Shown here: positions 37,268 through 60,929 of the stretch, in pieces
How positions within the stretch are numbered: the first letter of the stretch is position 1
How the letters are laid out: each line of letters begins with the position of its first letter
The notes under the pieces: model-generated
What the model was told of the DNA's origin: nothing
The model's input: only the letters and a program-made list of their open reading frames with translations
The model's database searches: none
Made by a program: the position numbers and the translations under genes
Source of the DNA: a virus
Taxonomy: Duplodnaviria > Caudoviricetes
Length of the DNA stretch: 64,000 bases
Reading direction: 5' to 3' (one strand)
IMG/VR virus record: IMGVR_UViG_3300028833_005986
Coordinates: 32,001-96,000 of that record

Positions 37268-40200
37268 TTAAAATGTTAATCTCCATGTACACTAAATAAT
37301 ATTGGACTATATAATTAATTAATAAAGTTATTATAGTCTCTGAAGAATATACAAATTCTTACTGATTAAATTATTATTAATTACTTTCAGTAATTTAAAC
37401 TTTTTATATAACTACTACATATATTAAATAGTTAATCTAGAACTTGCGTCTTTCTAATATATTATTATTTTAGCATATACTTAAAATATCTTATATATTT
37501 TATATAAGTTTAGATTATATCTTTTATATAATTAAATATAAACTATTATTATAATCGTTGTATATATAAATTATTCTTATATAATTTATATATTACTAAT
37601 TAATATTATTAATAATATTTTTAGTAAATAAATAATTTACGGAACAAAAATCTATTATAAGAATATAAAATTTTTATAATAATAAAAAACATCGTTCCAA
37701 ACTGGAAATACTTTCATTATTTTTTATTTGGACTATATCATATATAAAAATTATTTATATTAATATTACTAGTCTCTGATATGATTAATAATCATATACT
37801 GATTTATTTATTAAAAATAAATATTCCAGTAATTTTATTATTTTATAATCGTAAAGTATTTAAAATATAATCAAAATTTTATCAGCGATTGAACATATAA
37901 CCAGTATCTTTTCCAGCTCCATTTTCCCAGGCAGAAGCATTTCCGCCAAATATAGCCATTTCAGTAATTGGACCTACAGCTTCATCTTCATTAAATGTTG
38001 TTACTAATTTTAGAATATTCGTATTATAATCTTGCTGATAATTTTTAAAATATCTTCTCATCTTAAAAATTCATACCAATTAAGCTCTCTTGTTATTATA
38101 TATGTACTAATATATAATCAAATCAATCTACACTTCGCAGCGTATTCTAAAATCAATTCAATATATACTTATCTCTTATATATATCATAATCAATTCTAT
38201 ATTGATTCTTGAACTCTAATTCGTATTGGCGCTACCAGCGCACCTCTACAGTATAAAGTAGATATATCTTCATATAAATTATGTATATCTCGACTTTCTA
38301 TTAAGTCTTCATAAGATATCTTTCTACTTATAACCTTACCTTTATTTAACTGTTTTATTTTTTTATATTCTTTATTTAATAAATATTTCTTTAATATATT
38401 CAAAGATCCATTCATATCTGCATTTATTAATATACCATTCTTGGACTTATAAAGTCCTCTCTTTATTCTCTTACCTGCAAAGTGTTTCTTTTTTAATTCT
38501 ATCTTATCATTTATTGTTCTTAATACATATCCTAATTTTTCATCTTTTTTATATGATAATATATAATCATTATCTAAGAAAGAAGCTTTAGATGTAAATG
38601 ATTCTTCTTGAAGAACAAATTTAATATTATTCATCTTACATCTATATTCTAAATTATCTTTTATCTTACTAAATGGTATACTAGTAAAGAATTGATTATT
38701 TTTCTTACCTAAATTAGATTTTCTTTGAAAGTCATTGTTCCATCCTAATATAATAATTTTTATATTATTTTGTAAAGAATAATCTATTAATTTTTTACAA
38801 ATCTTATGGATATAATAATTAACTTTATTATTTCTTTTCTTTAATATATTATACATCTTTTTTGTATATCTTAATTTTTTATTAGTATTTTTCTTTTGTA
38901 ATTTACTAATAATTCTATTATATCCTTGATTTATAGATTTCAATTCTTTACCATCTAATATAAAACTATTAATTTTTTTCTTAGAATTATGATTATAATT
39001 AATACAAGTCATTAAATTATTAATGCCTAAATCAATTGATAAATAATTATTATTAACTTGTATATTATCATTAATTTCTATTTCATAGGTATAATGAATT
39101 TCAAAAATTTTACCTTTATATTTAGGAATTACTTGAATATATTTTATTTTTTTATCTTTTAATATAGCAGGTATTTTTATTCTAAATCTATCTTTACTTT
39201 TTAAAGTTAAATTATATTCTTTTAATATTTGATAACTTAGAGGAATAATCCATTCATTATTTTTATTTATATGAATTTTATTAGTTGGAAGTATAAAATA
39301 ATCATTTTTGTCTAAATATTTAGGAATATTACATTTTAAACCTTTTTGTTTTAAAGTGAAGAAAGATTTAAAATTTTCATCTATTATATATAAGATATTA
39401 CAACTACAATTAGCTTCTAATAATTTATAATTAATATTATTTTTAATACTATGATAATTATCTATATAATTTAAATATTTACCAATATTAAAGAAATATT
39501 GTCTAATATTATATAGAGCAGAATTATATAGATTTTTACTATATTTACATAATTTTTTAAATAATATATATAATTGTTTATATTTATATATACTGACTTG
39601 TTGTTTAACAGTTAAATAACATTTTTCTTTTTTATTGATATTATTTTTAAGATTTCTACTAATAATAATAATTCACATCTTTTTAATATTATAAATTTTA
39701 ATAATATTAACAGTTTAAATAACTATTAGTAATAGGATTAGATATTTTAAAACCTATTAAGCTTTGATTTTAATTAAAGCATAGATTATATCATTAATAT
39801 ATAAGATATATAATTAATGATTCTATAGAAATATACAATATTAATCGTTAGATAGATATATATTGATAAAATATATATTTATTATTGATCTATTATAAAA
39901 TTATAAATATTCCAATAAATAATTAAATTATCAAACCATTGTATGGTTCATCGTTTTCATCAACAAAACACCACGAAGTAAATTTCTTACGATATAATTC
40001 ACCTACTAATCTAGTATCAGTTAATTGTGCTTTATGTTCCACCTCTGGATCCATAATATCCCATAATACTGTATTAACTTTATTATTTACACGGTCATAT
40101 GGCTGATCTTCGTGTTCGAGAATACCAACGCCAACAGCTAAAACCTGTAAGCCTGTAATTTTTTGAATATCACTAACAGTAGTACCAGTTTCCGATTCCA

Positions 40201-40399
40201 TTACTGGTGCCATTCTCCAAGCCATTAATTCGCTAGCTTTATTAACAATTAAATTTTTTGTAGTTTGTTCTTTTGTAATTTCTTTAGCGCCTTCAATTTT
40301 ACCTGTTTTAGGATTATATTCTCCGCCTTTGTGCATAACCATTGAAATTTCGCCTTTAATTACATGCTGTTTTTTATAATCTTCATTATTTATACTCAT
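37268..40399 (-). CDS. baseplate/tail-associated structural protein, 5 exons (40399-39935, 38034-37885, 37714-37694, 37453-37428, 37289-37268; 227 aa)
   Basis: Spliced product NLIVN..LAVGVG..L.GELYRK..G|QDYNTNIL...F.E.EAVGPITEMAIFGG...MFNR|KVFPVWN|KDASSRLTI|TWRLTF* forms one coherent phage structural fold. Confidence 0.82.
37290..37427 (-). ncRNA. group I-like intron, 138 nt
   Basis: P1 TAACTAT/GTAGTTA (U.G); R TCAGAGACTA, S TATAGTCC; ends TAGTG. Confidence 0.85.
37454..37693 (-). ncRNA. group I-like intron, 240 nt
   Basis: P1 TGGAAC/GTTCCG (C-G at the splice site); R CAACGATTA, S AAGATATAATCT; ends TTAG. Confidence 0.8.
37715..37884 (-). ncRNA. group I-like intron, 170 nt
   Basis: R TCAGAGACTA, S GATATAGTCC; ends AATG; candidate P1 AATCGC/ACGATT (C.A). 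Confidence 0.8.
38035..39934 (-). mobile_element. IStron-like element 1: group I intron core + tnpB + right end/omegaRNA, no transposase
   Basis: R CTAACGATTA, S GATATAATCT; tnpB downstream of the core; ends AAAAATTATCAG; highly similar to 45905-47822; removal restores the host frame. 5' end placed by alignment and frame. Confidence 0.85.
38197..39672 (-). CDS. tnpB: IS607-type TnpB RNA-guided nuclease (~491 aa; frame open to ATT codons at 39672, ORF track truncated it at 39012)
   Basis: YLTVKQQ, SKNLYN, IDLG, QEESFTSKASFLD, KRGLY, INADMNG, RG.L..P.RI; collinear with 46076..47557. Confidence 0.88.
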   Translation of the reverse strand: MIIISRNLKNNINKKEKCYLTVKQQVSIYKYKQLYILFKKLCKYSKNLYNSALYNIRQYFFNIGKYLNYIDNYHSIKNNINYKLLEANCSCNILYIIDENFKSFFTLKQKGLKCNIPKYLDKNDYFILPTNKIHINKNNEWIIPLSYQILKEYNLTLKSKDRFRIKIPAILKDKKIKYIQVIPKYKGKIFEIHYTYEIEINDNIQVNNNYLSIDLGINNLMTCINYNHNSKKKINSFILDGKELKSINQGYNRIISKLQKKNTNKKLRYTKKMYNILKKRNNKVNYYIHKICKKLIDYSLQNNIKIIILGWNNDFQRKSNLGKKNNQFFTSIPFSKIKDNLEYRCKMNNIKFVLQEESFTSKASFLDNDYILSYKKDEKLGYVLRTINDKIELKKKHFAGKRIKRGLYKSKNGILINADMNGSLNILKKYLLNKEYKKIKQLNKGKVISRKISYEDLIESRDIHNLYEDISTLYCRGALVAPIRIRVQESI

Positions 40400-40570
40400 A
40401 TATTTTTATCTCCATTCTTTTATTTTTTAATATAATATTTATTAATAAGATAATTTGTTAATTAGATTATTAATTTATCTATATAATAATATTAATATAA
40501 TTAACGAATTAATTAATAAAAAATAATATTAATTTATTAAATAACTAATAAATTAAGTAATATTAATTTG

Positions 40571-42162
40571 TTATATAGCTAACAAATTAATAAATTCAAG
40601 TTCTTTACGTAATTGCTTATTTTCTTCTATTAAAGCTTCAATTCCTTTAGTATGAATATCCATATTATCTTGAGTATCTTTTACATAAGTATTAAAATTA
40701 CTTAATTGTAAATATTTCGTATTTAATTCATTCGTTCCTAAAAATGCTTGATAGCGCTGATCTTGTATATCATTCCAATAAATTACATTAGCAAATTTAC
40801 CGTCTAATGATACTCTATCGGATATAGAACTAAAATTTTGCCAATTAATTGCTCCATAAATATTATGATAAGCATTATAGCCGGTTGTGTTTAATCTAGC
40901 GACTTCAAATAAAGGTATTGCATAAACATATCCATCCATAGTATTAAAGATATTCATAGTTTCTGCGCCTTTACCTGCAATAAACATATGCGGGTCATTA
41001 AACGGTTCAAAATCAGCCGTAGTATATATATAATCTAAATTATCATAAACTTTTGGACCTTGCTGATATTTTTTAAAATATCTTTTCGTATTTTAAAAAT
41101 TTATTAAGCTTTAATGATTTAGTTAAAGCATAGATTATATCATTAATATATAAGATATATAATTAATGATTCTATTAGTATATACCTATAAAATTAATCG
41201 TTAAATATATATTTATTATTAATAAATATATATTATTGATCTATTATAATGGTTTATAAATATATCAATAAATTTTAAATTAATAATCCCTTATAAGGAT
41301 GTATATCTAAATCTTCAATACGATTTTTACCGTTATCATAATGTAATTCATGTTTATCTTCAATTGCTCTAATACACCATTGTAATTGAATTCTAGTTGT
41401 GCTGGGAATAGAAATACGATGATCAATCATTTCAAATGCTACTGAATCATTAGCTATACCACCAAATAAAGGAATGTCATCTCTAAATTTAATTTCTTTA
41501 AACCAAAATTCTAATATTACTAAATCTTGGCGTCTAACAGATGTAGCTGTAGGTGGAGGTAAATATACAACTAATCCATCGCGTTTACTTGATTCAATTC
41601 TTACAATATGTCCATGTAAAACTGCATGAAATGGATTAATAATAAAATTATTTAATTCTAATTGTGAGCCAATAGTACTAGCATCTTGAATAATATGATC
41701 ATGTTTATCTCTAATTAAAAATTGATGTGCTTTATATGCGCCTAATTCATCAGTATTAGCATTATTTGAAATTTGTAAGCATCCTGAATGCGTCATAGTT
41801 CTAATTAATTTTGCTCGTTCTTCAATCTGAATCCATTGAAGTTCCTTTATATATTTATATATTTAAATATACTTTTTAAATACATTTTTATTAAAAGTCT
41901 TAAAATAAAAATGGTTAGACTATATCTTTTTTTAAAAATAAAAATTATTATATAGTCGTTGAATATATAGATTTTTATATAAAAATTTATATATTACTAA
42001 ATAAATTGATTATTTTTAGTAATTAAATAATTCGATTGGAACAAATTTATTCCATTCATCTTCAATTAAGAAAGCATCTGATCCACCTTTTAATGACAAA
42101 AAATTAACAGTAGGATCAAATTTACCTTTCGCATTTCGTGAAAAATCAGGAAAATATGCCAT
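40571..42162 (-). CDS. virion structural protein, 3 exons (42162-42049, 41844-41287, 41062-40571; ~387 aa), paralogous to the N-terminus of 27189-31424
   Basis: IEDEWN|ELQWIQ, RQDLVILEFW, STTRIQLQW, YAIPLFEVARLN, DGKFANVI..NDIQDQR. Confidence 0.82.
41063..41286 (-). mobile_element. 224-nt tnpB-less intron of the same family as the IStrons
   Basis: Shares the 5' core (ATAATAGATCAATA, TAACGATTAA, AGAATCATTAATTATATATCTTATATATTAATGATATAATCTATGCTTTAA) and the 3' end (AGATATTTTAAAAA.TATCAG). Confidence 0.85.
41845..42048 (-). ncRNA. group I-like intron, 204 nt
   Basis: P1 TGGAAT/GTTCCA (U.G); R TCAACGACTA, S AAGATATAGTCT; ends AAAG. Confidence 0.92.
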
Positions 42163-45649: not shown

Positions 45650-47888
45650 TTATATATAATTATCAATTATATTACCAATATAATAATAATTATTATAATT
45701 TAATAAATAATTTTCACTATATGTATTTTCACGATCAATTGTTGTTTTAAAATCGTTTATATATGTTTCAATGTCATCTATACCATTTATACCTTTCATT
45801 GATTTTTTAATATCATCAATCTGAGATTGTGCTTTATGCTGCTGATAATTAATAAATTTATATTCACTAATCTCATTAACTTGATGTATACGTTTATATT
45901 TATTCTGATAATTTTTAAAATATCTTCTCATCTTAAAAATTCATACCAATTAAGCTCTCTACTTCTCAATATATTAATCACTTAATATATCTAAAATCAA
46001 ATCAATCTACACTTCACAGTATATTCTAAAATCAATTCAATATATACTTATCCTTTATATATATCATAATCAATTTCATATTGATTCTTGAGCTTTAATT
46101 CGTATTGGCGCTACCAGCGCACCTCTACAGTATAAAGTAGATATATCTTCATATAAATTATGTATATCTCGACTTTCTATTAAGTCTTCATAAGATATCT
46201 TTCTACTTACGACCTTACATTTATTTTTATTTAACTGTTTTATTTTTTCATATTCTTTATTTAATAAATATTTCTTTAATATATTCAAAGCACCATTCAT
46301 ATCTGCATTGATTAATATACCATTCTTGGACTTATAAAGTCCTCTCTTCACTCTCTTACCTGTAAAGAGCTTCTTTCTTAATTCTACTTTATTATCTATT
46401 GTTCTTAATACATATCCTAATTTTTCATCTTTCTTATATGATAACATATAATCATTATCTAAAAAAGATGCTTTAGATGTAAATGATTCTTCTTGAAGAA
46501 CAAATTTTATATTATTCATTTTGCATCTATATTCTAAATTATCTTTTATTTTACTAAATGGTATACTAGTAAAAAATTGATTATTTTTTCTACCTAAATT
46601 AGTTTTTCTTTGAAAATCACTATTCCAACCTAATACAATAGTTTTTATATTATTAGCTAAGCAATAATCTATAAGTTTTTTACAGGTCTTATGAATATAA
46701 TAATTAATTTTATTATTTCGCTTCTTTAATATATTATACATCTTTTTTGTGTATCTTAATTTCTTATTAGTATTTAATTTTTGTAATTTACTAATAATTC
46801 TATTATATCCTTGATTTATAGATTTTAATTCTTTACCATCTAATATAAAACTATTAATTTTTTTATTAGAATTATGATTATAACTAATACAAGTAAATAA
46901 ATTATTAATACCTAAATCAATAGCTAAATAATTATTATTAACTTGTATATTATCATTAATTTCTATTTCATATGTATAATGAATTTCGAATATTTTACCT
47001 TTATATTTAGGAATAACTTGAATATATTTTATTTTTTTATCTTTTAATATAGCAGGTATTTTTATTCTAAATCTATCTTTACTTTGCGAAGTTAAGTTAT
47101 ATTCTTTTAATATTTGATAACTTAAAGGAATAATCCATTCGTTATTACTATTAATATGAATTTTATGCGTAGGTAATATAAAATAATCATTTTTATCTAA
47201 ATATTTAGGAATATTGCATTTTAATTTTTTTTGTTTTAAAGCGAAGAAAGATTTAAAATTTTCATCTATTATATGTAAAATATTATTACTACAATTAGCT
47301 TCTAATAATTTATAATTGATATTATTTTTAATATTATGATAATTATTATTATAATTTAAATATTTATTAGTATTAAAGAAATATTGTCTAATATTATATA
47401 AAGCAGAATTATATAAATTTTTACTATATTTACACAATTTTTTGAATAATATATATAATTGTTTATATTTATATTTACTAACTTGTTGTTTAACAGTTAA
47501 ATAAAATTTTTCTTTTTTATTGATATTTTTTTTAAGATTTCTACTAATAATAATCAACTACCTTTTAATATTAATATAATAATATAAATAGATAATGATT
47601 ATTAAAAAGTAATAGGATTAGATATTTTAAAATCTATTATACTTTAATATTTAATTAAAGCATAGATTATATCATTAATATATAAGATATAAGATATATA
47701 ATTAATGATTCTATAATAATATACAATATTAATCGTTAGATAGCTATATATTGATATAATATATAGCTATTATTGATCTATTATGAGATTATAAATATTC
47801 CAATAAATAATTAAATTATTAAACCATTATTAGGTTCAGGCATATTAAATAATAACCATGAAGTATCTGTTATATACATATTCATCAT
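45650..47888 (-). CDS. small tail-fibre-associated protein, spliced from exons 47888-47823 and 45904-45650 (106 aa)
   Basis: AGGAGG RBS; MMNMYITDTSWLLFNMPEPNNG|NKYKRIHQVNE in frame. Confidence 0.7.
45905..47822 (-). mobile_element. IStron-like element 2: group I intron core + tnpB + right end/omegaRNA
   Basis: Same architecture and termini as 38035-39934. Confidence 0.87.
46076..47557 (-). CDS. tnpB: IS607-type TnpB RNA-guided nuclease
   Basis: AIDLG, VLGWN, QEESFTSKASFLD, INADMNG; no C4 zinc finger. Confidence 0.92.
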   Translation of the reverse strand: MIIISRNLKKNINKKEKFYLTVKQQVSKYKYKQLYILFKKLCKYSKNLYNSALYNIRQYFFNTNKYLNYNNNYHNIKNNINYKLLEANCSNNILHIIDENFKSFFALKQKKLKCNIPKYLDKNDYFILPTHKIHINSNNEWIIPLSYQILKEYNLTSQSKDRFRIKIPAILKDKKIKYIQVIPKYKGKIFEIHYTYEIEINDNIQVNNNYLAIDLGINNLFTCISYNHNSNKKINSFILDGKELKSINQGYNRIISKLQKLNTNKKLRYTKKMYNILKKRNNKINYYIHKTCKKLIDYCLANNIKTIVLGWNSDFQRKTNLGRKNNQFFTSIPFSKIKDNLEYRCKMNNIKFVLQEESFTSKASFLDNDYMLSYKKDEKLGYVLRTIDNKVELRKKLFTGKRVKRGLYKSKNGILINADMNGALNILKKYLLNKEYEKIKQLNKNKCKVVSRKISYEDLIESRDIHNLYEDISTLYCRGALVAPIRIKAQESI

Positions 47889-47919: not shown

Positions 47920-50900
47920 TTATGCTTTATAAATGCGATATCTAATAGTAAAAGTATCTGATGGTGTTTCTTTTGCATATAAATAAAAGCATCCCGATGC
48001 TGAAACTGTAAAGTCTGCTAATCCTGCTGCACGAGCTATATTTGTATTACTTGCTAATTCTACTTCAACTACATCATTAGCTGTTAAATTACTAACATTT
48101 ATTTGATATCGCCGTGCATATGATATATTATTAATAGTAGTTGCGGTGGTATACCAAGCACCAGCAGTTGTAGAACTGGTAGTAGTTGTTTTTGCAATAG
48201 TTACTGCCGAAGCATATGTATATTTAGTCATATAAGTAGTATCAATTCGCTGTCCTTTAATATCTTGCAGTGCTTGTAAAGCATTAATACCCATAGGTTG
48301 GAATTCGCCATTTACGTACTGCCAATATTGATTATATAAAAGATTTATATTCATTTGATATGTAGAATATGATCTACCAACATATAAATAGGTATATCCG
48401 TCTTCACTAGTAGGAGCTGTAGTAGTTAAAATATCAGAATGTACAGTAAAAGTATTACCAGATAAAGTACCTTTTAAATATACTGGTTTCTTTTCTGCAA
48501 ATGTTCTTGATGCATTATCAACTATTGTTTGCATATTAGCACCAATACTAATCCAATACAAACTTGTACTCAATGCAGCTGCATCAGCCACCGTTGATCC
48601 ATTAAATAATACTGGATGTCGAATATCAAAAGTATCTCCTGCATTAAGTTCTTTATATGCTATGCCATCAGTTGTACCTACAAATCTTGCAGCAGCAATA
48701 GCACCATCAGCAGTTGCTACTGGATTCGCTATTCTTATTCTATCATAATAGTTGGCATCATAATCAGCAAGTACAAACCAATAAGTACCATTATAAATTA
48801 ATGGAACATAATAATTCGCACTATATTGTGTTGTTAATCGAGTTGTAGAGTATCTATAAATTGCTTTTGCGCCTGTTGTACTTCCACCTGAAAGTGTAAG
48901 ATTTAATGTAGCATTACCAGAACTCGAATATGGTAATTTATAAATAATCATTTTACCAGTATATAGAGCAGCATCTTTTGTTACGCCAGTCCAAGCACCT
49001 GTAACTGCTGTTTGAGTACCTACAATATATTCTATAGTGTGTTCACTAATCTTTTTACCATTAGAATCATTAGTAGCTGTAGCAGCTGTTCCGCTAATAT
49101 TAATCCCCCAAGTACCTGAAGCATCTCCACCTGTTCTACTAGGAACTGATAAAGTTGTTCGCATTGCTGCTACATCTGCATCATCTAATAACGTTCTTGC
49201 TATAGCTGTTAATGGTGTAGTTGCATATGTATTAGAAGCAGTTGTATAAATCATTTGATTTGCAGAAGTAGCTAACCCACTAATAGAAGTTAAAGCTGCA
49301 TGAGCACTTTGTTTAGTAGTAATAGCATTATTTAATGTAGTATATACACTAGCATCTTTATTAATAGCATTAGCAATTTCTTCCAAAGTATCTAATGTAC
49401 CAGGTGCCGCACCAATTAAATTATTAATAGCATTATCGACAAAAGCTGTAGTAGCTACTTGTGTAGTCTTAGTGCCTAATGGAGCTGTTGAAGCTGTTAC
49501 CGTTCCTGTAAATGCAGCACCAGCCAGTTTAGCATAAGTAGTATTAATTGGTTTATTATCGCTGTCATTAGTTGCTTTTGTTGCAGAATCAGCATTACCT
49601 GTTAAATTAGCTTTAATTGTCGCAGGCAATTTAAGAATAATATTAGAAGATCCATCAAAACTAGTAACAGCACCTGTATTAGCAGCAGTAGAATCTTGAA
49701 TACTAATAGATTTTGCAACAGCTAATTTAGTAGCAGTATCAGCATTGCCGTCTAAACTTGCTTTTATAGTCGCTGGTAATCTTATATTTAATACAGAAGT
49801 ATTACTTCCATCAAAACTAATAGCCGTACCAGTATTCGCTCCAGAACTATCTTGAATATTAATAGATCTTGCTGTAGCTAATTTAGTAGCTGTAGTTGCA
49901 TTACCAGTTATACTACCAGTAAAAGATTGTGCAATTACTCCCGCAGGAAATGTAACGTTATTATTTATATCCCAAGTATAGAATCTGTTATGACTAACTA
50001 TATTGTGATCAGAAAACCACCAGTTACCACCATAAAAACGAATATCATTTAATGATGGCGAACCATAACTAGCATTTACTGTTGTTTGTTTAAAAGTCAT
50101 ACGCAATGCATACATATTTCCTGATTGCGAAGCAGATTGATTAAAACCTTGTACTTGATTGAAATAAATTATATTATTTCCTGACCATCCGCTTAATGGC
50201 TTCTCAGTAAATAAATTAATCCAAGTATCAGTATCTTTATCTGCAAATTTTTGCCAATCAAGCGTTACATTCCAATTATTACCATTAGTGGAGCCCCAAA
50301 TATATAAAGCATTTACACTAACATATCTACCTGAAGGCATAATAGTAATACGTAGCTGATTATTAAGACTATTATCTGCTTTTACAGATGCTTTACCTAA
50401 GAACATGTTAGTAGTACGTAATTCCATAAAGATAGCCTTTTTTTGATCATCAGTTAAACCATAATCAATCCATGTTTTGCCGCCATCGCGTGAATATTCT
50501 ACAATAGTTGTCGCGCCACTAATACCAAATGTTTTATTAGATGCCCATGCTCCTACGCGATTACCAGTAATCCAGTCTAAATTACCTGCTATACTTTCTG
50601 TTGTGGTATTAATTGATGATGGAGTAATATTACCAGATATATTAGTCGCTTGAATATTAGTGGCTGATAGTGTAGATGTAGCGGGATTAACTTTTACTCC
50701 AGAGCCAAAAATTGCTGTATTCGCACCACGATTTGTTGATGCATTTTCTGTAGATACTAATAATACTGGGTATGTTGCATCCGCAGTAGATACATTTTGC
50801 GTCATTAGTGTATCAGTATTAGTATCGCCGTATAATGTAGTAGTTGTACCATTTATAGTAATTTTACCTACTTCAGTACCAGAAGTCTTTGTTTGTGTAA

Positions 50901-53900
50901 AACTAACAGCATCTGCAGAAGCAGTAATACCATCTAATTTAGATTTATCTGCGGCAGACATTAATCCAGCAATACTAGTTGTTGCTTCATGCTCAGTACC
51001 AGTAGAATTAATAGTAATTACACCATTAGAAGCCGTAACTGTAGTAGAACCAGTACCTTTAATATTAATGGCATTTCGTACAGTAGAATCATCAATAACA
51101 TTTAAATGCACATTACCATTAGTAGCAACTGCATTAGCTGTTCCGTTATTAGCACTAGCTGCTACTAAATGTGTGGTATAATGCGTATTAGTATCTGTAG
51201 TTGGAGGCGTATAGCCTAATGCAGTGGTAACATTATCTTTAGTTAGACTAATCGTACCTGAAGAATTAGTAATATTACTACCTATTTTAACTAATCCTAA
51301 ATTACTACCAGACGCAGCAGAATATGTCGTATCTTGTGTAGTAATAGTACCAGTATCTCCATCACCTTTAGTATAAGTGATAGTCTTACCAGATACAGAT
51401 AAGTCTTTAATATAAGTATCAACGATATCTTGATTTTTACTATCTTTAGTAGCAGAAGTAGCCGCACCTGATAAGTTACCTGTAAAAGTAGTAGCTGTTA
51501 CTTTAGTTGCTAATAATTCACCAGTTGATGGATTGATTTTTATATCTTTACCAAATTGTGCAGCATTAGCCGAAATATTACTTGTCGCATTAGCTGTAGC
51601 CGCAATTAATACTGGATATGTTGAATTTACAGTAGAAATATTTTGTGCGACTTTAGCATCCGTATTTGCTGCGGCAGCTGCAGCTTTAGCAAAAGCTGTT
51701 GTAGCAATTTGTGTATCATTAGTAGCGATTGCCGCTGTAGGAGCAGTTGGCGTTCCAGTTAATTCAGGCGATGCTAATGGTGCATAAGTAGTATTAATTT
51801 GATTACCGACAGAATCACTAGTCGCTTTTGTGGCTAGACCACTGAAATTTTTAGCCGTAATAGTACCTGCCGACGGATTAATAGTAATTGCAGAATTAAA
51901 ATAAGTACCACTAGTAGTATCTGTTACCGCGGTGCTATTTTTAAATAATACTGGATATGCAGAATTAACAATTGATATAGCAGTTTGTGTTACATTTTGA
52001 TCCTCAGTAGTAATAGTTCCGGTAGTATTATTACCTTTAGTATATGTAATAGTTTTACCTGAAATTGCTAGGCCTACAATAGCATTAGCTTTAGCTACAT
52101 AAGTATCGGCGATATTATGCCCACCACTATCATTTGTTGCATTAGTTGCAGAAGTCGCATTACCAGATAAATTACCAGAAAAAGTAGTAGCATATAAAGT
52201 GCCAGTAGATGGATTAATTTTAATAGTTTTACCAAAAATTGCAGCTTTTGCACCTTGATCTGTTGTAGCATTAGGTGTAGAAGTAGCTAATATTGGATAT
52301 GTAGAATTAGTAGTAGATACACTTTGTGTTACAAATGTATTTGTATCAGGTGTAGTAATAGTACCTGTAGTTCCATTACCTTTAGTATAAGTAATAGTCT
52401 GTCCAGAAATAGCTAATCCTGTAATAGCATTAGCTTTAGTTTCATAAGTAGTAGCAATATTATGTCCTGCACTATCTTCAATAGCTGCATCTGCAGTGCC
52501 TTCTAAATCGCCAACAAATTTAGATGCAATAATACTTTTATTGTTTGGATTAATTTTAATATCTTTACTAAAAATTGCAGTTGTAGTTGCATTAGTACTT
52601 GCATTTACTACTGACGATGCTAATAATGGATAAGTAGAATTAGTAGTCGAAACGCTTTGTTGCATTTTTTCATCTTTAGTAGTTAAAGTGCCAGTTGTAT
52701 TATCTCCGCGTTTAAAAGTTAATGTCTGATTTGATAGAGTTAAATCAACAATTCCTTCAGTCTTTTTAACATAAGTCGTGTTAATCGGTTTATCATCACT
52801 ATCGTTTGTCGCTTTTGTAGCAGCTGTGGCAGTAGAAGCATTACCGTTTAAAGTAGCTTTAATAGTAGAAGGTAATTTAATATATAATGTAGAAGTATTG
52901 CTACCATCAAATTTAATTTCTGTACCAATATTAGTACCATCAGCATCACTAATATTAATAGATCTCTTATTAGCTAATTTAGTTGCAGTAGAAGCATTAC
53001 CTTCAATAGTAGCTGTAATCGTACCAGGTAATTTAATGGTACCAGCTGAAGACCCATTAAAATTAAATGCAGTACCAGTATGTGATCCGTCACTATCACT
53101 TATATTTATATTTCTTCCTGTTTCTAAAGTAGTAGCAGTAGCAGCATTACCGGTACATTTTGCTGCAGTATCTGCCGTAGTTGCTGATGCTGCTTTTTCA
53201 CTTTTACCTAAAGCATCAATAGTTGTACGCATATCAGAAGCTGTAGCATCATCTAATAAATTCCTTGCTAATGCAGTTAATGGCGCAGTTTTATATGTAT
53301 TAGAAGCTGTCGTATAAATCATTTGATTTGCAGACGTAGTTAAATTACTTATAGAAGTTAATGCTGCATGGGCTGATTGTTTTGTAGTAATTGCATTATT
53401 TAATGTATTATATACATCTTGATCATTATTGATTGCATCTGCTAATTCTTTTAATGTATCTAATTCTGCTGGAGCTGCTCCAATTAAATTTTTAATAGCA
53501 TTATCTACAAAAGCTGTAGTAGCTACTTGTGTAGTCTTAGTACCCAATGTAGCTGTAGGAGCAGTTGGTGTTCCAGTTAATTCTGGTGAAGCTAATGGTG
53601 CATAAGTAGTATTAATTTGATTACCAGAAGAATCATTAGTAGCATTAGTAGCAGTATCAGCATTACCTGTTAAATTAGCTTTTATAGTACTAGGTAATTT
53701 AATAGTACCATTTGTCGATCCGTCAAACTCAATAGCAGTACCGGCATTAGTATTATCAGCATCACTAATATTAATAGATCTTTTATTAGTTAATTTAATA
53801 GCTTTATCTGCTGTACCAGTTAAATCAGCTTTTATAGTACCAGGTAATGCAATAGTTACTGCTTGACTACCATTAAAACTAGTACCTGCTCCAATATTTG

Positions 53901-54777
53901 TTGCATCCGCATCACTTATTTTTAAAGTACGAGAATTTTTTAATGTAGTGGCAGTAGCGGCATTACCAGTAGTATCTATACTAGCTGTACCACTTAATTT
54001 AGTAGCATCTAATGACGTAACAGGAATAGTAATATCTAAAGTACCATTAAATTCTGTAGCTGTACCAGTAGCGGCGCCAGAAAGTGCTATTGTTTTTTTA
54101 TTAGCTAATTTTGTAGCTGAATCTGCATTACCAGTTAAATCAGCTTTAATAGTAGCTGGTAATTTTAAAGTAACATCTGCAGAACCATTAAAAGTACTAG
54201 CAGTACCAGCATTTGTGCTATCATTATCATTAATAACAAAATTTCTAATATTCTTTAATACAGTGGCAGTAGAAGCATTACCATCAATTTCAGCTGTAAT
54301 GGTTTTTGGTAATGTAATAGTACCATTAGCAGAACCGTCAAAATTAATAGCTGTACCTGTATGCGTTTCGCTATTATCTTGAATATTAATAGACCTGCTA
54401 TTAGTTAATGTTGTAGCAGTAGTAGCGTTGCCAGTTAAATCAGCTTTAATAGTAGAAGGTAATTTAAGATTAATATTTGATCCGCCGTTAAAACTAGTAG
54501 CAACGCCTGTATTTGTTTTTGATGCGTCGCTAATAGTAATATCTCTACTAACACTTAAATTACTTGCAGCTGTAGCTGTACCATCTGCGGGAAGAAATGA
54601 ACCTACGATAGAATTATTATAAAATTCAGAAATTTTGCTATCAATTCGATTATCTGTAGCATTTGCAAAATCTGTTATTTGTGAACTTTCAGTTTCTGGA
54701 TGTAATACTTTATATATAGCTTTATTATTCAAATCGCGATCAGCAATTACATGTATTTTTCCTTTAATTTCTGCCAA
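47920..54777 (-). CDS. long tail fibre protein (2285 aa, repetitive)
   Basis: Many GNA.TA.KL...R.I.I.D...G..FDGS.N..I.LP.TI.A repeats; PTAPTA..T..TQ.ATTAF and LDTL.E.A.AI fibre motifs. Confidence 0.9.
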   Translation of the reverse strand: MAEIKGKIHVIADRDLNNKAIYKVLHPETESSQITDFANATDNRIDSKISEFYNNSIVGSFLPADGTATAASNLSVSRDITISDASKTNTGVATSFNGGSNINLKLPSTIKADLTGNATTATTLTNSRSINIQDNSETHTGTAINFDGSANGTITLPKTITAEIDGNASTATVLKNIRNFVINDNDSTNAGTASTFNGSADVTLKLPATIKADLTGNADSATKLANKKTIALSGAATGTATEFNGTLDITIPVTSLDATKLSGTASIDTTGNAATATTLKNSRTLKISDADATNIGAGTSFNGSQAVTIALPGTIKADLTGTADKAIKLTNKRSINISDADNTNAGTAIEFDGSTNGTIKLPSTIKANLTGNADTATNATNDSSGNQINTTYAPLASPELTGTPTAPTATLGTKTTQVATTAFVDNAIKNLIGAAPAELDTLKELADAINNDQDVYNTLNNAITTKQSAHAALTSISNLTTSANQMIYTTASNTYKTAPLTALARNLLDDATASDMRTTIDALGKSEKAASATTADTAAKCTGNAATATTLETGRNINISDSDGSHTGTAFNFNGSSAGTIKLPGTITATIEGNASTATKLANKRSINISDADGTNIGTEIKFDGSNTSTLYIKLPSTIKATLNGNASTATAATKATNDSDDKPINTTYVKKTEGIVDLTLSNQTLTFKRGDNTTGTLTTKDEKMQQSVSTTNSTYPLLASSVVNASTNATTTAIFSKDIKINPNNKSIIASKFVGDLEGTADAAIEDSAGHNIATTYETKANAITGLAISGQTITYTKGNGTTGTITTPDTNTFVTQSVSTTNSTYPILATSTPNATTDQGAKAAIFGKTIKINPSTGTLYATTFSGNLSGNATSATNATNDSGGHNIADTYVAKANAIVGLAISGKTITYTKGNNTTGTITTEDQNVTQTAISIVNSAYPVLFKNSTAVTDTTSGTYFNSAITINPSAGTITAKNFSGLATKATSDSVGNQINTTYAPLASPELTGTPTAPTAAIATNDTQIATTAFAKAAAAAANTDAKVAQNISTVNSTYPVLIAATANATSNISANAAQFGKDIKINPSTGELLATKVTATTFTGNLSGAATSATKDSKNQDIVDTYIKDLSVSGKTITYTKGDGDTGTITTQDTTYSAASGSNLGLVKIGSNITNSSGTISLTKDNVTTALGYTPPTTDTNTHYTTHLVAASANNGTANAVATNGNVHLNVIDDSTVRNAINIKGTGSTTVTASNGVITINSTGTEHEATTSIAGLMSAADKSKLDGITASADAVSFTQTKTSGTEVGKITINGTTTTLYGDTNTDTLMTQNVSTADATYPVLLVSTENASTNRGANTAIFGSGVKVNPATSTLSATNIQATNISGNITPSSINTTTESIAGNLDWITGNRVGAWASNKTFGISGATTIVEYSRDGGKTWIDYGLTDDQKKAIFMELRTTNMFLGKASVKADNSLNNQLRITIMPSGRYVSVNALYIWGSTNGNNWNVTLDWQKFADKDTDTWINLFTEKPLSGWSGNNIIYFNQVQGFNQSASQSGNMYALRMTFKQTTVNASYGSPSLNDIRFYGGNWWFSDHNIVSHNRFYTWDINNNVTFPAGVIAQSFTGSITGNATTATKLATARSINIQDSSGANTGTAISFDGSNTSVLNIRLPATIKASLDGNADTATKLAVAKSISIQDSTAANTGAVTSFDGSSNIILKLPATIKANLTGNADSATKATNDSDNKPINTTYAKLAGAAFTGTVTASTAPLGTKTTQVATTAFVDNAINNLIGAAPGTLDTLEEIANAINKDASVYTTLNNAITTKQSAHAALTSISGLATSANQMIYTTASNTYATTPLTAIARTLLDDADVAAMRTTLSVPSRTGGDASGTWGINISGTAATATNDSNGKKISEHTIEYIVGTQTAVTGAWTGVTKDAALYTGKMIIYKLPYSSSGNATLNLTLSGGSTTGAKAIYRYSTTRLTTQYSANYYVPLIYNGTYWFVLADYDANYYDRIRIANPVATADGAIAAARFVGTTDGIAYKELNAGDTFDIRHPVLFNGSTVADAAALSTSLYWISIGANMQTIVDNASRTFAEKKPVYLKGTLSGNTFTVHSDILTTTAPTSEDGYTYLYVGRSYSTYQMNINLLYNQYWQYVNGEFQPMGINALQALQDIKGQRIDTTYMTKYTYASAVTIAKTTTTSSTTAGAWYTTATTINNISYARRYQINVSNLTANDVVEVELASNTNIARAAGLADFTVSASGCFYLYAKETPSDTFTIRYRIYKA

Positions 54778-54914: not shown

Positions 54915-56142
54915 TTAATTTTTTTTATTTTTATAATATTCATTTTTTATTAACATAAATGAAACTAAAATAATCATTATAATAATAATTAAAATTATAA
55001 AAAATGCATTTATATGTAAACTATTTATAGGATTAGTAATAATATGATGTCTAAAAGTATTAATCTTAGTTATATCTCCTGAATATCTAGCTTGTAATTG
55101 CTGATATAAATTAAATGTTTGCACAACAATTATTTTATGATTTTGTACTTTATTGCCATATATATCAATATCGTCTACGCCAAAAATATCTCCGTTAGGT
55201 GTAATATAAGCTGGTGCGAGAAATTGAATATTTTTAAAAGCTTCTATTCCATATTGATTATATAATTGATGCAAATTTTCTATATCAATTTCTGGAGGAA
55301 TTACAACTCTATTAGGATCGTCACTCGGAAATTCCCAATAAATAAGTCCATCTTTCTGCGATAATAAAGCATTCACTGCGGCTTTAGTAAGCTTAATATT
55401 AGTTTGTTCTTTATAAATTTCACTCCATAAGAGTGGAAATTTTTCTATATTTTTTCTAGCGCGACGTGATTGATTTGCTAATACACCATATCTATTGCAA
55501 ATAAAAACATTATTATTATTATCATCTGCGTTAACGTTAAATAAATATACATCTTTGATAGTTTGTTGCATAATAACAAAATATCTAGGATTTAAATCTT
55601 TATTAGCATTATTATCCAATTCTTCTTGCAATACAGATAAATCTGAATATTGACTTTTAATATTAATAATTAAATTATCTGCTATTAATTTTGCTTGATT
55701 TTTTGCCGCCAAATGATCTTCATATATAATAGATTTAATAAAAGTCCACTCTAAATCATTAATATATTGTGTACGCAATTCTATATTCGAAAAATTCGTA
55801 ACATAATCATTATATATATATCCTATATATGCAGATAGAATAATGAATATTATAATTATACACATTGGCAACAATTTATATTTATTTATCTTAAACAAAT
55901 CATATGGTCTGTAAAATATTTTATTAAAAAATTAATAAAACTATTAATCAATTATTAATTTCTATAATTGCATAGACTATATATTTTTATAACAATAAAT
56001 TTCAATAAAAAATATTTACTATTATAGTCATTACTTATATGATAATTTTAAAATTATCATATAATATTGATAATTTTAAATTAATATACCAATAATCAAT
56101 ATATTTACTGAGGCTATATTAATACCTCCTACATAATTTCAT
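54915..56142 (-). CDS. membrane protein with two TM helices flanking an extracytoplasmic domain; 5' end interrupted by an intron
   Basis: Hydrophobic N- and C-terminal segments; candidate splice ATG AAA TTA TGT AGG AGG T|AT TTG TTT. Confidence 0.65.
55901..56123 (-). ncRNA. group I-like intron, ~215-223 nt (3' end G55901 or G55909)
   Basis: P1 GAGGT/GCCTC (U.G); R TAATGACTA, S ATATAGTCT. Confidence 0.78.
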
Positions 56143-56391
56143 CAATCCTTTAAGTTTTATAAACAATTCCTTTATTTAAAAAATATTTTTCTTTTTCTTA
56201 AATAAAAATTTTCCTTTAATAAAAATTTTTTTAATAAAAAATTTTATATAAAACTTTTTATAATGATCGATATTATTTATCTAAATCTATTTTTTATTTT
56301 ATATTATTATTTAATAATTATAATTATATATTTTTTATATTAAAAAGAAAAGAGGCGTATTTATATATTATTATTAAATGATTATATACAA

Positions 56392-56619
56392 ATGTATATT
56401 AATCCTCAGCATTGGTATGAAAAGCAAGAAGCTGAAAATATGAAGCAAAAAATTGATAAATATTTAATTATTAAAAATAATGTAGGTTATATACATAATA
56501 GATTATTATCAATACCTATTACAAAATTTGCTATTTATTTAGGTAAAAATATTAATTTACAAAAACAAATTAATGCATTACTTAAAGAAGACTATCAATA
56601 TTTATCTAATATTGTTTAA
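56392..56619 (+). CDS. hypothetical protein
   Basis: ORF track. Confidence 0.45.
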   Translation: MYINPQHWYEKQEAENMKQKIDKYLIIKNNVGYIHNRLLSIPITKFAIYLGKNINLQKQINALLKEDYQYLSNIV

Positions 56620-56624
56620 TTTTA

Positions 56625-57440
56625 TTAATACTTTTTATTAGCGACTCGAATAATTAATTCGTCTGCAAATCTAAAAGTATAAATTTTTTTATGTAATTTA
56701 TGTTGTACTTTTTTACATATGCTTTTTATATTTTCTGTTCTATAGGTAATTAATAATTCATCAATATCATATGAATAAGCATATAATCTTGCCGCAGAAA
56801 TATTATACTTATTTAAATCATTCCAAGTTAATATTTCTACTTGTTCTAATATTTTTGTTAAATCTTTTTCACTTTCATGTTTATATTGGTCATATTCTAA
56901 ACAATATTGTTCTAATAAATCATCATGTAAGCAGTCTCTTTGTAAAATAGATCCGTTAATATATAATACTGCTAATCCGTCAGGATCGAATTCTGGTTCT
57001 AATATTTTATATTTATCATCAACATCATCAATTATTGAAGTTAATTCTTTTTTATGTTTAATAATTTTATAATTTGTTGGAGTATTTAATTTCTTTTTAA
57101 ATGAAATTAATTTTTTATTGATTTTAGATCTAATTGACTCATATATAGGTAATTTACAAATTCTTTTCATATATATAATAAATGATATTGGAGGTAATCG
57201 ATAAATATAATTATCAGGCATTAATGAATCTATTAAATCGTAATCAATAAATATTATTTTTTTACTATATAATAGTTCATGATTATCAATTAATTTATCA
57301 ACATTTATATTATTTATTTTAAATAAATTGGTATTAATAAATTTATTAATATAATCTAAATATAAAGTAATATATTGTTCGTGTAAAACATTATCTAATT
57401 GTTTATGTGTTTTTAATATTATACTCAAAATTAAATTCAC
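56625..57440 (-). CDS. hypothetical protein, distant relative of the 31433/57931 family
   Basis: DGLAVLYING..H..L and C-terminal KKIY....L.IRVA. Confidence 0.6.
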   Translation of the reverse strand: MNLILSIILKTHKQLDNVLHEQYITLYLDYINKFINTNLFKINNINVDKLIDNHELLYSKKIIFIDYDLIDSLMPDNYIYRLPPISFIIYMKRICKLPIYESIRSKINKKLISFKKKLNTPTNYKIIKHKKELTSIIDDVDDKYKILEPEFDPDGLAVLYINGSILQRDCLHDDLLEQYCLEYDQYKHESEKDLTKILEQVEILTWNDLNKYNISAARLYAYSYDIDELLITYRTENIKSICKKVQHKLHKKIYTFRFADELIIRVANKKY

Positions 57441-57567
57441 CCTATAATAAATATTAAATCAAATATAAAAAAATCCTTATTAAATTAATCTTTTATATTA
57501 AAAACTAATTTAATAAGGATTTTTTATTAAAATTTTTTATATTAAGAACTAATTTATTAAGAATTTA

Positions 57568-57855
57568 CTAAGTAAATGCATAACCTAACATATTGTTATT
57601 TAATTTAGCATTTAGCAATTCAATTTCATCACATGAATTATCAAATATTTCATATACAATAATTTGATACTTGTGTCCACGCTTTTCATATTCTGCTTGC
57701 CAAATTTTTTCTTTATCATTAATTAATTCTAATACCTGAATACTATGCATTTGAGCAATATTAATTGCTTCATCCTGTGTATTAAATATACCAATAATAC
57801 ATATTCTAATATTATTAGTATTAATTGTATAATCTTTCTAAACTACAATAAACAT
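57568..57855 (-). pseudogene. small gene with premature TAG at codon 6 (57840-57838)
   Basis: AAGGAG RBS, then ATG TTT ATT GTA GTT TAG AAA GAT..., continuing in frame into ORF 57568..57750. Confidence 0.6.
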
Positions 57856-57930
57856 TTTAGTTCTCCTTATAATTGTATTAATAATACTAACTAAATTTAA
57901 AATAAAAAATATTTATTAATTTATATGCTT

Positions 57931-58929
57931 TTATTTTTTTATAGCTAATCGTTTAAGCTTTCCACCATGTGCTCCATCTGGTGCTAAATATACTTTTTTA
58001 ATTCTTGAATCATTTTTTAATATATTAACTAATTCATTAATTGTATATCCAATTTGTCCTTGATAATCAATAAATACACATGGTTTATACCAATATGCTC
58101 GACCATAATGATAATTGTCATAATTACAATTTTCAGTATTCAATTCATGATGAAAATCTCCATAATTACCAATTAATACATGATCTTTATTATTTTTATC
58201 TCGATAAATAACTACAGGTCCATCGCGTAAATTAGTATTATGTGGATCATAATTAATCTCTCCATAATATTGACCAATTTTATCATCATTATCTAATTCT
58301 AATAAATATTTATTTTTATCTTTTATATGTAATTGATCATATATATCTATAACATAATTTTCTAATTCATTAAAATCATTTTCTAGTACTAAATTAATAG
58401 TTGGCGATAATGATAAAATATTACTTAAAGATAAATTAAAATTTTCTTTACAAAATATATCATCTACAATAAATGCATTAATTAAATTTATTAATTTATT
58501 TCTTATATTTGCTTTAATTTTAATATTATTAATAATTTTAGGTATTAATTGATATATATGTCCACAAATTAATTTACTAAGTCGAGAATATATTTGTTCT
58601 AAATTAATATCTTTACTTCTTTCATTAATTATTTTTTGTATTATATTTTTAAATTGTTTTTTATTATCTTCAACGAAAGATAATAAAATATTTTCAAGAT
58701 TATATTTATATTGTTTATTATTTCTATATTTTTGAATATCAATATTTAATAATTCAGCAATATCAAAATCTTGATTATCTAAATATTCTTTAATACAATT
58801 AACATAATGTTCATTAATTAAATTATAAATATTATCATTTAATTTAAAATCAATACCGAATTCAAAATATAACTCAAAATATTCTTTAAAGGATTTAAAT
58901 AATTTTTCTTTATCCATATTTTTATTCAT
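57931..58929 (-). CDS. hypothetical protein, paralogue of 31433-32455
   Basis: LRDGPVVI..DHVLIGNYGDFH...GGKLKRLAIKK. Confidence 0.75.
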   Translation of the reverse strand: MNKNMDKEKLFKSFKEYFELYFEFGIDFKLNDNIYNLINEHYVNCIKEYLDNQDFDIAELLNIDIQKYRNNKQYKYNLENILLSFVEDNKKQFKNIIQKIINERSKDINLEQIYSRLSKLICGHIYQLIPKIINNIKIKANIRNKLINLINAFIVDDIFCKENFNLSLSNILSLSPTINLVLENDFNELENYVIDIYDQLHIKDKNKYLLELDNDDKIGQYYGEINYDPHNTNLRDGPVVIYRDKNNKDHVLIGNYGDFHHELNTENCNYDNYHYGRAYWYKPCVFIDYQGQIGYTINELVNILKNDSRIKKVYLAPDGAHGGKLKRLAIKK

Positions 58930-58954
58930 TAAAAAATAATTATTAATTTTATAT

Positions 58955-59190
58955 ATAGCAAAATCACGTCAAGCTAAAATTTTAAAAAAGATAATAGCTT
59001 ACGCGCCGACTAATTTTTATTTTTTAAAAATTAACTAGCAATTAATTTACAATATATAGTAATTAATTTATACATAGCGCGATTGATATTCAACGTACCC
59101 AGGATACACATTTCCAGCTATCCACATATCCCAACGGCTTGACTATCCTTTACGTGGGTCATCGCAACCTGCGTGTATCATATGCTCTTC
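58955..59190 (-). ncRNA. unassigned GC-rich structured RNA (~240 nt)
   Basis: Non-coding GC island. Minus-strand stems GATACACG/TGTGTATC, CAGG/CCTG, AATCGCG/CGTGATT, GCGCT/GGCGC, TAAGCTA/TAGCTTG; G.U wobbles favour the minus strand. Confidence 0.6.
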
Positions 59191-59394
59191 TATATATATA
59201 TTAATAATAATATATTTTAAATTAATATTTAATTAATTATCAAATGGAAAAAATTAATTTAAAAAACTCTCTGTATATAAAATAGCATAAATTTGCTATT
59301 TTATTTCGTCTTAAATTGACAATACAATTAGCTTAAAGAATGTTTTTAGAAGAAATTTTTTAGAAGAATATTTTTATATAGAGGTGAATAAATA

Positions 59395-60929
59395 ATGGCT
59401 ATTATTTTAGAAGCTAAAGATGATCTTAATCAGTTTATATTAACAGATTATGAACGCAAACTTATTTATCGCCTCCGCGTTTTACTAAAAGATTTACCAG
59501 ATGATGTTCTTAGAACATTAAATACGTTAGTCGAACAAAATCGCGGAATTAATATTATTAATACTAAACTACATTTTAGAAATTATATTAATTTTTTTAT
59601 GCCGCGAAAAATTATAAAAATTTCAAAGAAATACTAATATATTATTTGAATTATTAATAAAATTATTTAATTAATAATTTCTATATAAGCAACGTATATT
59701 ATTTATAATTAATAAAAAAGAAATATACTAATCTTTTTATATAAAAAGAAAATATATAATAAAATATTTATAAATATAAATGGAACGATGGACAGATCAA
59801 ATGCTAATAAATTACATATATCAATCTTTAGGATATATTAATGCAGCGCCTTTACAAACAGGATATGATTTAACAAATATACCTACAGCATGGGAAAGCC
59901 CACTATTAACCGGTGCAATGGTATTCTCACTTTTAGCAGAAGCTATATTACAGACTGGAAACATCATATAAAATAAATATATTGCTTGTATAGCAATATT
60001 AGTTTTAAATTATTCTCTAGTCAAATAAATTAAAATAATTTCGAGAAATTATTCAATAAATTTAATTCGAAAATATATTATATATATTATATAATAATTG
60101 CAACGCATAATTGAATTTAATATAAACATAAAAAATTATGCTAATCTAAAAAGATAATTTTTAGATAATAATTAATATAATTATTATTTAATACAAAAAG
60201 AAACATTTTCCTATTCAGATAATGGAATCAGTCAAAAATTAAAGGCTGAAATAAAATTTAATTAATTACGAGAATAATATATCTATATTTATTCGTAACT
60301 TATATAAGTTCAAAGACTATATATTAAAATTATTAAAATAAAAAATAGTCTAATTATATAATGCTTTCAATTTCTAATGCTGGACAGTACCAATCTCTAG
60401 CGAACGGATTACTATCCGGCTTTGAGCAACAAATAAAATCTTTAAAAGCATATACAAATATGCTTATACAATTAATTAATTTAATGAAAACACATATATT
60501 ATGTATATATTAAAATAATATTTATTTTTAAATAAATCTTATTTCAGAGCATATAAATATTAATTTATAATAAATGATTTATGCCATTCTATATTAAAAT
60601 TTATAGAATTATATAATAATAAATATATTTTCTTCTTAATTCAAAAAATTTGAGGCCAAATCCGGCTGGAATTTTTCATAAGTTCTTGTATAAATATATT
60701 ATTGCTAAAAATATATATTATATATCAATTAGCATTTATTTAAATATAAATATATTATTTATAAATCAACGACTATATAATATTTATTAATAAAAATATA
60801 GTCTTATTTTAGCATTTGTTAAAAATATTAAATTTATAAATTTAATAAAAAATTCAAAATTGATATGGAGGAATGAATTCAGGAGTCCGAATTCGCTCAT
60901 ATTCCCCGCGAATGTGGGTTTATAGATAA
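59395..60929 (+). CDS. neck/head-completion-like protein, 6 exons (59395-59547, 59783-59960, 60201-60232, 60364-60453, 60653-60672, 60863-60929; 179 aa)
   Basis: Spliced: ..RLRVLLKD..NRG|ERWTDQML..INAAP..LQTG(K/E)TFSYSDNGIS|LSISNAGQYQ..KAY|RPNPAGI|YGGMNSGVRIRSYSPRMWVYR*. Functional label is inferred from the FSYSDNGISL-type motif. Confidence 0.78.
59548..59782 (+). ncRNA. group I-like intron, 235 nt
   Basis: P1 TCGCGG-A / G-CCGCGA (59601-59607); R CAACGTATA, S AATATACT; ends AATG. Confidence 0.82.
59961..60200 (+). ncRNA. group I-like intron, 240 nt (ends uncertain by 1 nt)
   Basis: P1 GACTGG/CTAGTC; R CAACGCATA, S TTATGCT. Confidence 0.78.
60233..60363 (+). ncRNA. group I-like intron, 131 nt
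   Basis: P1 TCAGT/GCTGA (U.G); R TCAAAGACTA, S AATAGTCT; ends AATG. Confidence 0.85.
60454..60652 (+). ncRNA. group I-like intron, ~199 nt
   Basis: P1 AAGCATAT/ATATGCTT; R TCAGAGCATA, S TTATGCC; ends TTTG. Confidence 0.78.
60673..60862 (+). ncRNA. group I-like intron, 190 nt
   Basis: P1 GGAAT/GTTCT (U.G); R TCAACGACTA, S ATATAGTCT; ends ATTG. Confidence 0.85.

Follow-up and report, generated by a model that had tools for sequence, protein, structure and literature searches.

Classical phage group I introns, such as those of T4 td, nrdB and sunY, of Twort orf142 and of SPO1, lie in conserved phage genes, sometimes several to a gene; they pair an internal guide sequence (IGS) with the two exons in helices P1 and P10, carry in P7 a bulged base and a G-C guanosine-binding pair, and end in a G. 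The same features were found in a set of small introns of group I type and IStron derivatives, at least 14 in number, located in the late genes of a caudoviricete virus record, IMGVR_UViG_3300028833_005986. Positions 32,001 to 96,000 of this record were analysed, and this whole stretch of 64,000 nucleotides is referred to as the window; coordinates are those of the window unless another record is named. The present introns differ from the classical ones in being much smaller (131-240 nt), extremely AT-rich and unmatched by the Rfam model RF00028, and in that half of their 5′ splice sites depart from U·G at the -1 base, the last of the 5′ exon, or at its partner in the guide, purines at -1 included.

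The -1 base of group I introns has been described as "virtually always a U, or exceptionally a C" (PMC4227781), and in the P1 helix of the Tetrahymena ribozyme the U·G pair is required for activity and is approximately 230-fold more open than C-G, while its replacement by C-G speeds undocking about 80-fold (PMC1891724). In the window, seven of the 14 introns have the canonical U·G and the other seven have A·G, A·C, U-A, A-U, U·U, C·A and C-G respectively. The initial annotation of this DNA had flagged several such sites and had taken U·G to be nearly universal, with C·A as a rare substitute; given the natural exceptions already published (PMC4227781), U·G is treated here as near-universal, and its absence as not disqualifying. 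These pairs suggest that the "universal" U·G rule is relaxed in this genome. The reading favoured here, with a probability of roughly 0.6, is that the introns are functional and would work with whatever weak or non-Watson-Crick pair stands at the 5′ cut site. Such a relaxed requirement, already proposed in the initial annotation, appears to be the simplest reading of exons that are in frame and conserved and of pairs that recur in independent assemblies. The introns must be spliced accurately, because the genes would not work otherwise; that this happens at the mapped bonds, and how the sites are recognized, we infer from the junctions, the pairings and their conservation.

Tolerance of C at -1 has reportedly been met before: Hur and Waring are said to have described in 1995 mitochondrial introns of Aspergillus nidulans with C-G at the 5′ splice site, and Doudna, Cormack and Szostak are said to have engineered C·A sites, reportedly isosteric with U·G, into the Tetrahymena ribozyme in 1989. 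Those were single exceptions or laboratory constructs, whereas several kinds, A at -1 among them, occur here in one genome. Splicing after a base other than U is known from BcISt1, a group B IStron which splices after a G in vivo, as shown by reverse transcription PCR (Tourasse et al., 2014; PMC4227781). Like the introns described here, BcISt1 is a natural group I element with a non-U exon end and with the critical P1 pair beside the loop; it differs in that its exon ends in G with U·G shifted one base into the intron, and in the CGG 3′ end of group B (PMC4227781). A one-base shift of this type was considered for the flagged sites and rejected; their first intron bases are A, A, A, U, G and U, and none of these pairs with a guide G one step inside.

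The closest parallel in intron number and size is found in the gut "Jug" jumbo phages, for which the passages searched of the describing paper give approximately 18 group I introns per genome, of about 206 nt, fragmenting essential genes, with metatranscriptome support for the splicing of about half (PMC12880540). Like the present record, these are huge phages with many short group I introns in their genes. However, their G+C content is 27-30%, no relationship between them and the present record is established, and the same passages do not discuss splice-site pairs (PMC12880540).

Cut sites in genes A and B

Junctions were set by alignment to intron-less homologues, with proteins P0001-P0004, P0029, P0030 and P0053 and relatives' loci L006, L007, L009, L012, L013, L017 and L018 entering the comparisons, and were checked with spliced-protein models and a listing of all frame-keeping junctions. 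The spliced models are full-length proteins without stops, and homologues support all exons of the mapped genes, including micro-exons of 21, 26 and 22 nt. Guide sequences were sought by scanning the first 130 bases of each intron for complements under a weighted score, against 1000 shuffles; an unweighted scan, in which G·U was scored as Watson-Crick, was uninformative in such AT-rich DNA and was set aside for the weighted score. With introns named by gene and order, the weighted scan yields a P1 for every intron, significant in B-I1, B-I2, B-I4 and the IStrons, and it finds a G opposite the -1 U in seven introns of the window as well as in relatives' copies of the canonical families. As the scan recovers U·G where it is present, the exceptions are not scanning artefacts. 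In two cases, the lysin intron and an intron at 56123-55909, P1 was picked by eye. Scans of IMG/VR and JGI with the gene A and gene B proteins or alignments gave no further relatives.

Gene B (59395-60929, plus strand) codes for 179 aa in six exons of 153, 178, 32, 90, 20 and 67 nt, which are fixed jointly by P0003, a fully intron-less homologue of 180 aa, and P0001, which is without the first three introns; the spliced model is identical to P0003 in 134 of 180 columns. The first intron, B-I1 (59548-59782, 235 nt), follows A59547 (codon GGA), and its junction RG|ERW matches P0001-P0004 exactly. This A lies opposite G59601, as initially annotated, in a P1 of six G+C-rich pairs with the IGS 59601-59607 (shuffle p 0.003; range for this A·G 0.000-0.004). 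The A·G pair is also present in L012 and L017, making three assemblies in all, while the divergent L006 and L013 have C·A, and three P1 pairs are changed on both sides between the two groups. In intron-less alleles the codon is GGT or GGC, and the freely available synonymous U is used by no intron-bearing allele. U-ending alternative junctions were also considered for B-I1 and rejected, and the listing of frame-keeping junctions offers no U·G.

The second intron, B-I2 (59961-60200, 240 nt), has A59960 opposite C60015 in a P1 of seven pairs with the IGS 60015-60022 (p 0.018; range for this intron 0.000-0.018). The same A·C arrangement is found in L012, L017, L018 and the divergent L013, five assemblies in all, with three fully compensatory P1 pairs. 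If the intron ends in G, the codon formed is Lys, as against Glu in every intron-less homologue; if it ends at A60199, Glu is kept and the -1 base becomes A59959, paired with U. An A at 59959 or 59960, as had been annotated, stands under either junction, and among the frame-keeping junctions none places U·G at the cut site.

A similar ambiguity is present in B-I4 (60454-60652, 199 nt), where the annotated U60453-A60458 pair is borne out, lying in a perfectly paired 8-bp hairpin whose loop is 4 nt long (p 0.022). This intron is missing from L012, L017 and L018, where the reading is Y-L-R-P-N. Ending it at G60652 loses a Leu conserved in all homologues, whereas an alternative junction 3 nt upstream retains the Leu and allows a 3-bp P10 with the hairpin loop. 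When both B-I2 and B-I4 are given their alternative ends, the model aligns with P0003 without gaps, and 136 of 180 columns are the same. On grounds of group I chemistry the terminal G is to be preferred in the two introns, because both keep the G-C binding pair, while protein conservation speaks for the alternatives; under either model U·G is absent. The two remaining introns of the gene are canonical, namely B-I3 (60233-60363, 131 nt; U60232·G60245, P1 of 4-5 bp, P10 of 4 bp, junction S|LS as in homologues) and B-I5 (60673-60862, 190 nt; U60672·G60682).

Gene A (40399-37268, minus strand) codes for 224 aa and is interrupted by an IStron and by the introns A-I2, A-I3 and A-I4. A C-terminal tail of about 30 residues is conserved in fourteen homologues, and it is reproduced only when the micro-exons of 21, 26 and 22 nt are joined; for the cut sites themselves the comparison is with one close relative only. 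A-I2 (37715-37884, 170 nt) follows C37885 (codon CGC), where homologues read FNR|K. The C·A pair noted here at the outset is upheld, with C37885 opposite A37852 of the IGS 37852-37847, in a P1 of 5 bp joined by a contiguous 8-bp P10 directly 5′ of the IGS on the same guide. The pair is identical in L007, and since a U at 37885 would be joined to the guide A in a Watson-Crick U-A pair, it is C that preserves the wobble.

In A-I3 (37454-37693, 240 nt), which follows the micro-exon 37714-37694, C37694 (codon AAC) forms a Watson-Crick pair with G37645 of the IGS 37645-37640, at a junction mapped by homologues reading VWN|KD and in agreement with the pairing originally described. The corresponding site is U·G in L007 and L009, so that the C-G at 37694 is derived; one position further on the guide, too, has changed, from U to C. 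Among Asn codons 4% are AAC, and among Arg codons 6% are CGC, so C at -1 at 37694 and 37885 runs against the mutation bias. It had been remarked that most of the flagged bases are third codon positions where U would be synonymous, and this applies to 37694, 59547 and 37885, the last with the Watson-Crick consequence just described, but not to 59960, where U would create a stop codon. A-I4 (37290-37427, 138 nt), between the micro-exons 37453-37428 and 37289-37268, has the canonical U37428·G37415 with a P1 and a P10 of 6 bp each.

The IStron of gene A (38035-39943, minus strand) bears an open reading frame (ORF) for tnpB and has its terminal G at 38035. Its boundary had initially been set at 39931|38030, which is incorrect; L007, 95% identical and without the IStron, fits best with and so fixes the junction at 39944|38034. 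This places A39944 opposite U39938 of the IGS 39938-39932 (P1 p 0.03), an A-U site which, like the U47832·U of a second tnpB-bearing IStron described below, lies beyond those originally listed.

With regard to the identity of these elements, an automated search returns the textbook P7 pattern, in which an outer pair and a single bulged base precede a G-C pair at the head of a 4-7 bp stem, in all eight introns of genes A and B that lack an ORF, as well as in most of the relatives' copies. In the IStron-type copies and the lysin intron P7 was read by eye, the automated picks there being wrong; loose regular-expression scans for P7 over the record gave mostly noise, and a strict version gave one extra intron. 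An intron-terminal G (omega G) fits 12 of the 14 junctions exactly, the exceptions being B-I2 and B-I4, each at the cost of a conserved residue. Wherever the guide is clear the 3′ exon pairs beside the 5′ exon, so that P10 adjoins P1 on one guide, and P1 shows compensatory changes in B-I1, B-I2 and the IStron family. Candidates for P3 are present, their assignment being ambiguous owing to AT-richness. In B-I5, A-I3 and A-I4 the prediction places two hairpins in the interval from P3 to P7, and a hand-drawn model of A-I2 accommodates P3, P4, an A-rich internal loop, P5 and P6. The introns are minimal, without P2 and most of P9. The elements are most likely genuine, very small group I introns together with IStron derivatives of one intron family.

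Recognition of the 5′ cut site

The distribution of pairs fits a need for some unstable or non-Watson-Crick pair where the helix of exon and guide ends, not for U and G as such. In the mechanism proposed, the cut site would be set where P1 ends or is interrupted, and any weak or non-Watson-Crick juxtaposition there could replace the wobble pair. C·A would do so as an isostere of the wobble, the other non-Watson-Crick options being A·C, A·G and U·U; C·A and A·C can form a protonated wobble, while A-U and U-A pairs closing a loop of 4-5 nt would be frayed. The internal Watson-Crick pair C37694-G would be a recent derived state and probably a costly one. Under AT pressure such sites may have arisen through loss of the guide G (G to A or G to U), after which a synonymous change in the exon restored a non-Watson-Crick pair; a path from U·G through U-A to C·A, for example, would leave the rare codon CGC.

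Independent metagenome assemblies show the pairs A·G, A·C and C·A again, beside P1 helices with compensatory changes, and this recurrence is, at the level of sequence comparison, a signature of selection and not of decay. It bears directly on the view that the non-canonical introns are impaired in splicing or dead, being decaying alleles, parts of defective phages or errors of assembly. A Watson-Crick pair at the Tetrahymena cut site is strongly deleterious (PMC1891724), and the source record (166,990 bp, 22.8% G+C) has a completeness of about 34% by CheckV. However, the exons are intact and conserved in genes common to many related phages, and the three recurring pairs come from separate samples and from divergent relatives, so that dead introns appear improbable.

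A number of observations weigh against a relaxed cut site. The C37694-G pair, which would also suit a dead intron, was found in one assembly only, the present one, and P1 of A-I3 taken alone is not significant (p 0.7), its guide being homologous to the relatives' guide. By itself P1 of A-I2 is borderline (p 0.06-0.1) and leans on P10, and in B-I2 and B-I4 the bonds are uncertain by 1-3 nt, as the terminal-G rule and protein conservation disagree. Rfam scans of 34 kb and of 1.5 kb, at the gathering score or at an E-value of 10, returned no RNA family, the group I model RF00028 included; this model is known to miss reduced AT-rich introns. To our knowledge a purine at -1 is also without experimental precedent, and no report of one was found in the literature looked at.

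It could also be that the junctions are misplaced by a few bases, the real sites being canonical or simply different and the proteins slightly unlike their homologues. This did happen at 39931, described above, and at 41287, which had been listed as a non-canonical A: in gene C (42162-40571, minus strand; 384 aa in three exons) the three homologues P0029, P0030 and P0053 all read HP|QGPK, placing the 5′ splice site at U41296 in a canonical pair with G41290. Position 41287 itself lies within the IGS (41290-41286), and a junction there adds three gap columns in all three comparisons. Of the six sites cited initially this is the only one at which the true junction falls on a nearby U·G; the other five hold. 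Two competing models exist for each of B-I2 and B-I4, and some relatives' introns fit non-G 3′ ends only, unless one residue is dropped. In B-I1, A-I2 and A-I3, by contrast, no alternative within 12 nt gives both U·G and a homologue-like protein, and in A-I2 the C|A junction is fixed by P1 and P10, which are contiguous on the guide. General misplacement is therefore considered unlikely.

Assisted splicing, to which the initial annotation had also pointed, is compatible with a relaxed site: a phage or host factor, such as a maturase-like endonuclease derivative or an RNA chaperone, would position P1 and make the wobble dispensable. The minimal size of the introns speaks for it, as does the sole candidate seen, an ORF of 926 aa directly after gene B (61086-63866, plus strand) with PHROG matches to HNH endonucleases and to a PD-(D/E)XK-type endonuclease/resolvase. 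However, this ORF is without evidence of RNA binding and is probably a free-standing homing endonuclease; such enzymes often accompany phage introns without any part in splicing being required of them, and for this ORF such a part is speculative. In addition A-I2, by hand reading, appears to keep the P4, A-rich internal loop and P5 which normally read the wobble pair. A need for such a factor is rather unlikely on this evidence, though somewhat less so than misplacement.

RNA editing, the other possibility raised at first, would, ahead of splicing, make the -1 base a U or its partner a G. Several different conversions would be needed (C to U, A to U and A to G) and nothing was found in favour of them. 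We know of no editing system for phage mRNA at such sites, nor of any in phages or bacteria for these contexts, and the C·A pair needs none, the engineered ribozymes of Doudna et al. (in 1989) having reportedly functioned with it unedited. Editing is scarcely credible here.

A stronger form of the relaxed-site reading is that the ribozymes of this phage lineage have truly dispensed with U·G and cut after A or C at helix interruptions, and that the same introns may have loosened the 3′ rule as well; this is put forward tentatively, as a possibility short of an even chance. An extra intron of gene B in one relative (L012:1520-1675, bounds uncertain by up to 3 nt) has in P7 an A-U pair, changed on both strands, where its sisters have the G-C guanosine-binding pair, and homology permits only non-G 3′ ends for it, one of these being A. 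Were the 3′ rule loosened, this intron would parallel in nature the ribozyme engineered to be adenosine-specific, the specificity switch in the Tetrahymena ribozyme which Michel in 1989 and Been and Perrotta in 1991 are said to have obtained. In three further introns of relatives (L017:2531-2700; L013:3694-3830, also in L006; L012:2365-2654) the 5′ sites are canonical U·G and the binding pair is G-C, but by homology an A precedes the 3′ exon. In the first two the next G would delete exactly one conserved residue, as at B-I4, and in the third the next in-frame G would delete two.

Whatever the mode of recognition, the genome provides matched natural experiments, with the same intron carrying A·G or C·A, the same site U·G or C-G, and sister IStrons U·G, U·U or A-U. 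These make the U·G requirement directly testable with few transcripts. Gene callers miss micro-exons, and intron finders based on U·G or on the Rfam model miss the present introns, with the result that genes of huge gut phages are annotated as fragments.

IStron-type elements and other features of the window

The window is very AT-rich (20% G+C) and belongs to a giant-phage record; its ORFs comprise long late genes in the standard code, two tnpB ORFs and one lysin-like gene. The second tnpB-bearing IStron (45905-47831, minus strand) has U47832 opposite U47826 of the IGS 47826-47820 (P1 p 0.03). Both large elements code for a protein with the Pfam domain OrfB_IS605 and a Cas12f1-like TNB domain, and they share a common intron core and TCAG ends with a tnpB-less sibling in gene C (41063-41295, minus strand), the intron following U41296. 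The exon bases after the terminal G of the second IStron differ from those in genes A and C, which shows that the four bases after TCAG in the latter two are exon and not intron.

Like the group A IStrons of the CdISt1 type, these elements combine a 5′ group I intron with an IS200/IS605-type tnpB and a TCAG 3′ end, and have ORF-less derivatives in the same genome (PMC4227781). They differ in that their flanks end in AACCA, AACCU or AUCCU (CC followed by U or A) instead of a T-rich pentanucleotide (PMC4227781), in that no tnpA was seen here, and in the loss of the guide G from two copies, which now have U·U and A-U.

The 167-kb record holds at least 15 copies of the IStron-type intron core. In the sister copies at record positions ~166206 and ~118536 the guide G is kept and the pair is U·G, which indicates that both tnpB-bearing IStrons lost it. 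Copies of the core were located at record positions 107909, 166206, 118536, 117780, 110166, 164043 and 35736 (window 3736), and the one at ~117780 may be another C·A site. The record as a whole is very intron-dense.

The first intron of gene C (41845-42048, minus strand) has a canonical U42049·G, and its junction EDEWN|ELQW agrees with P0030; this intron and the exon upstream of it (42162-42049) were absent from the initial annotation. The lysin-like gene, with a VgrG3-like C-terminal domain, has an intron of the IStron-type core family (36283-36572, minus strand) following U36573, where the weak U·G P1 was one of several candidates. The intron near 56 kb (55909-56123, minus strand), already noted in the initial annotation, has U56124·G56114 by inspection, at candidate junctions. 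With B-I3, B-I5, A-I4 and the tnpB-less sibling, these three make up the canonical U·G introns.

One intron family repeatedly follows a short exon word ending in GGAAU and matched by its guide (42054-42049 and 60668-60672 in the window, and L007:1261-1266), which suggests guide-directed spread to new sites. At 37699-37694 the same word reads GGAAC. It is also worth mentioning that a repeat-rich, fibre-like ORF of 2285 aa (47920-54777, minus strand) forms an island of 33-35% G+C in a genome of 20% G+C.

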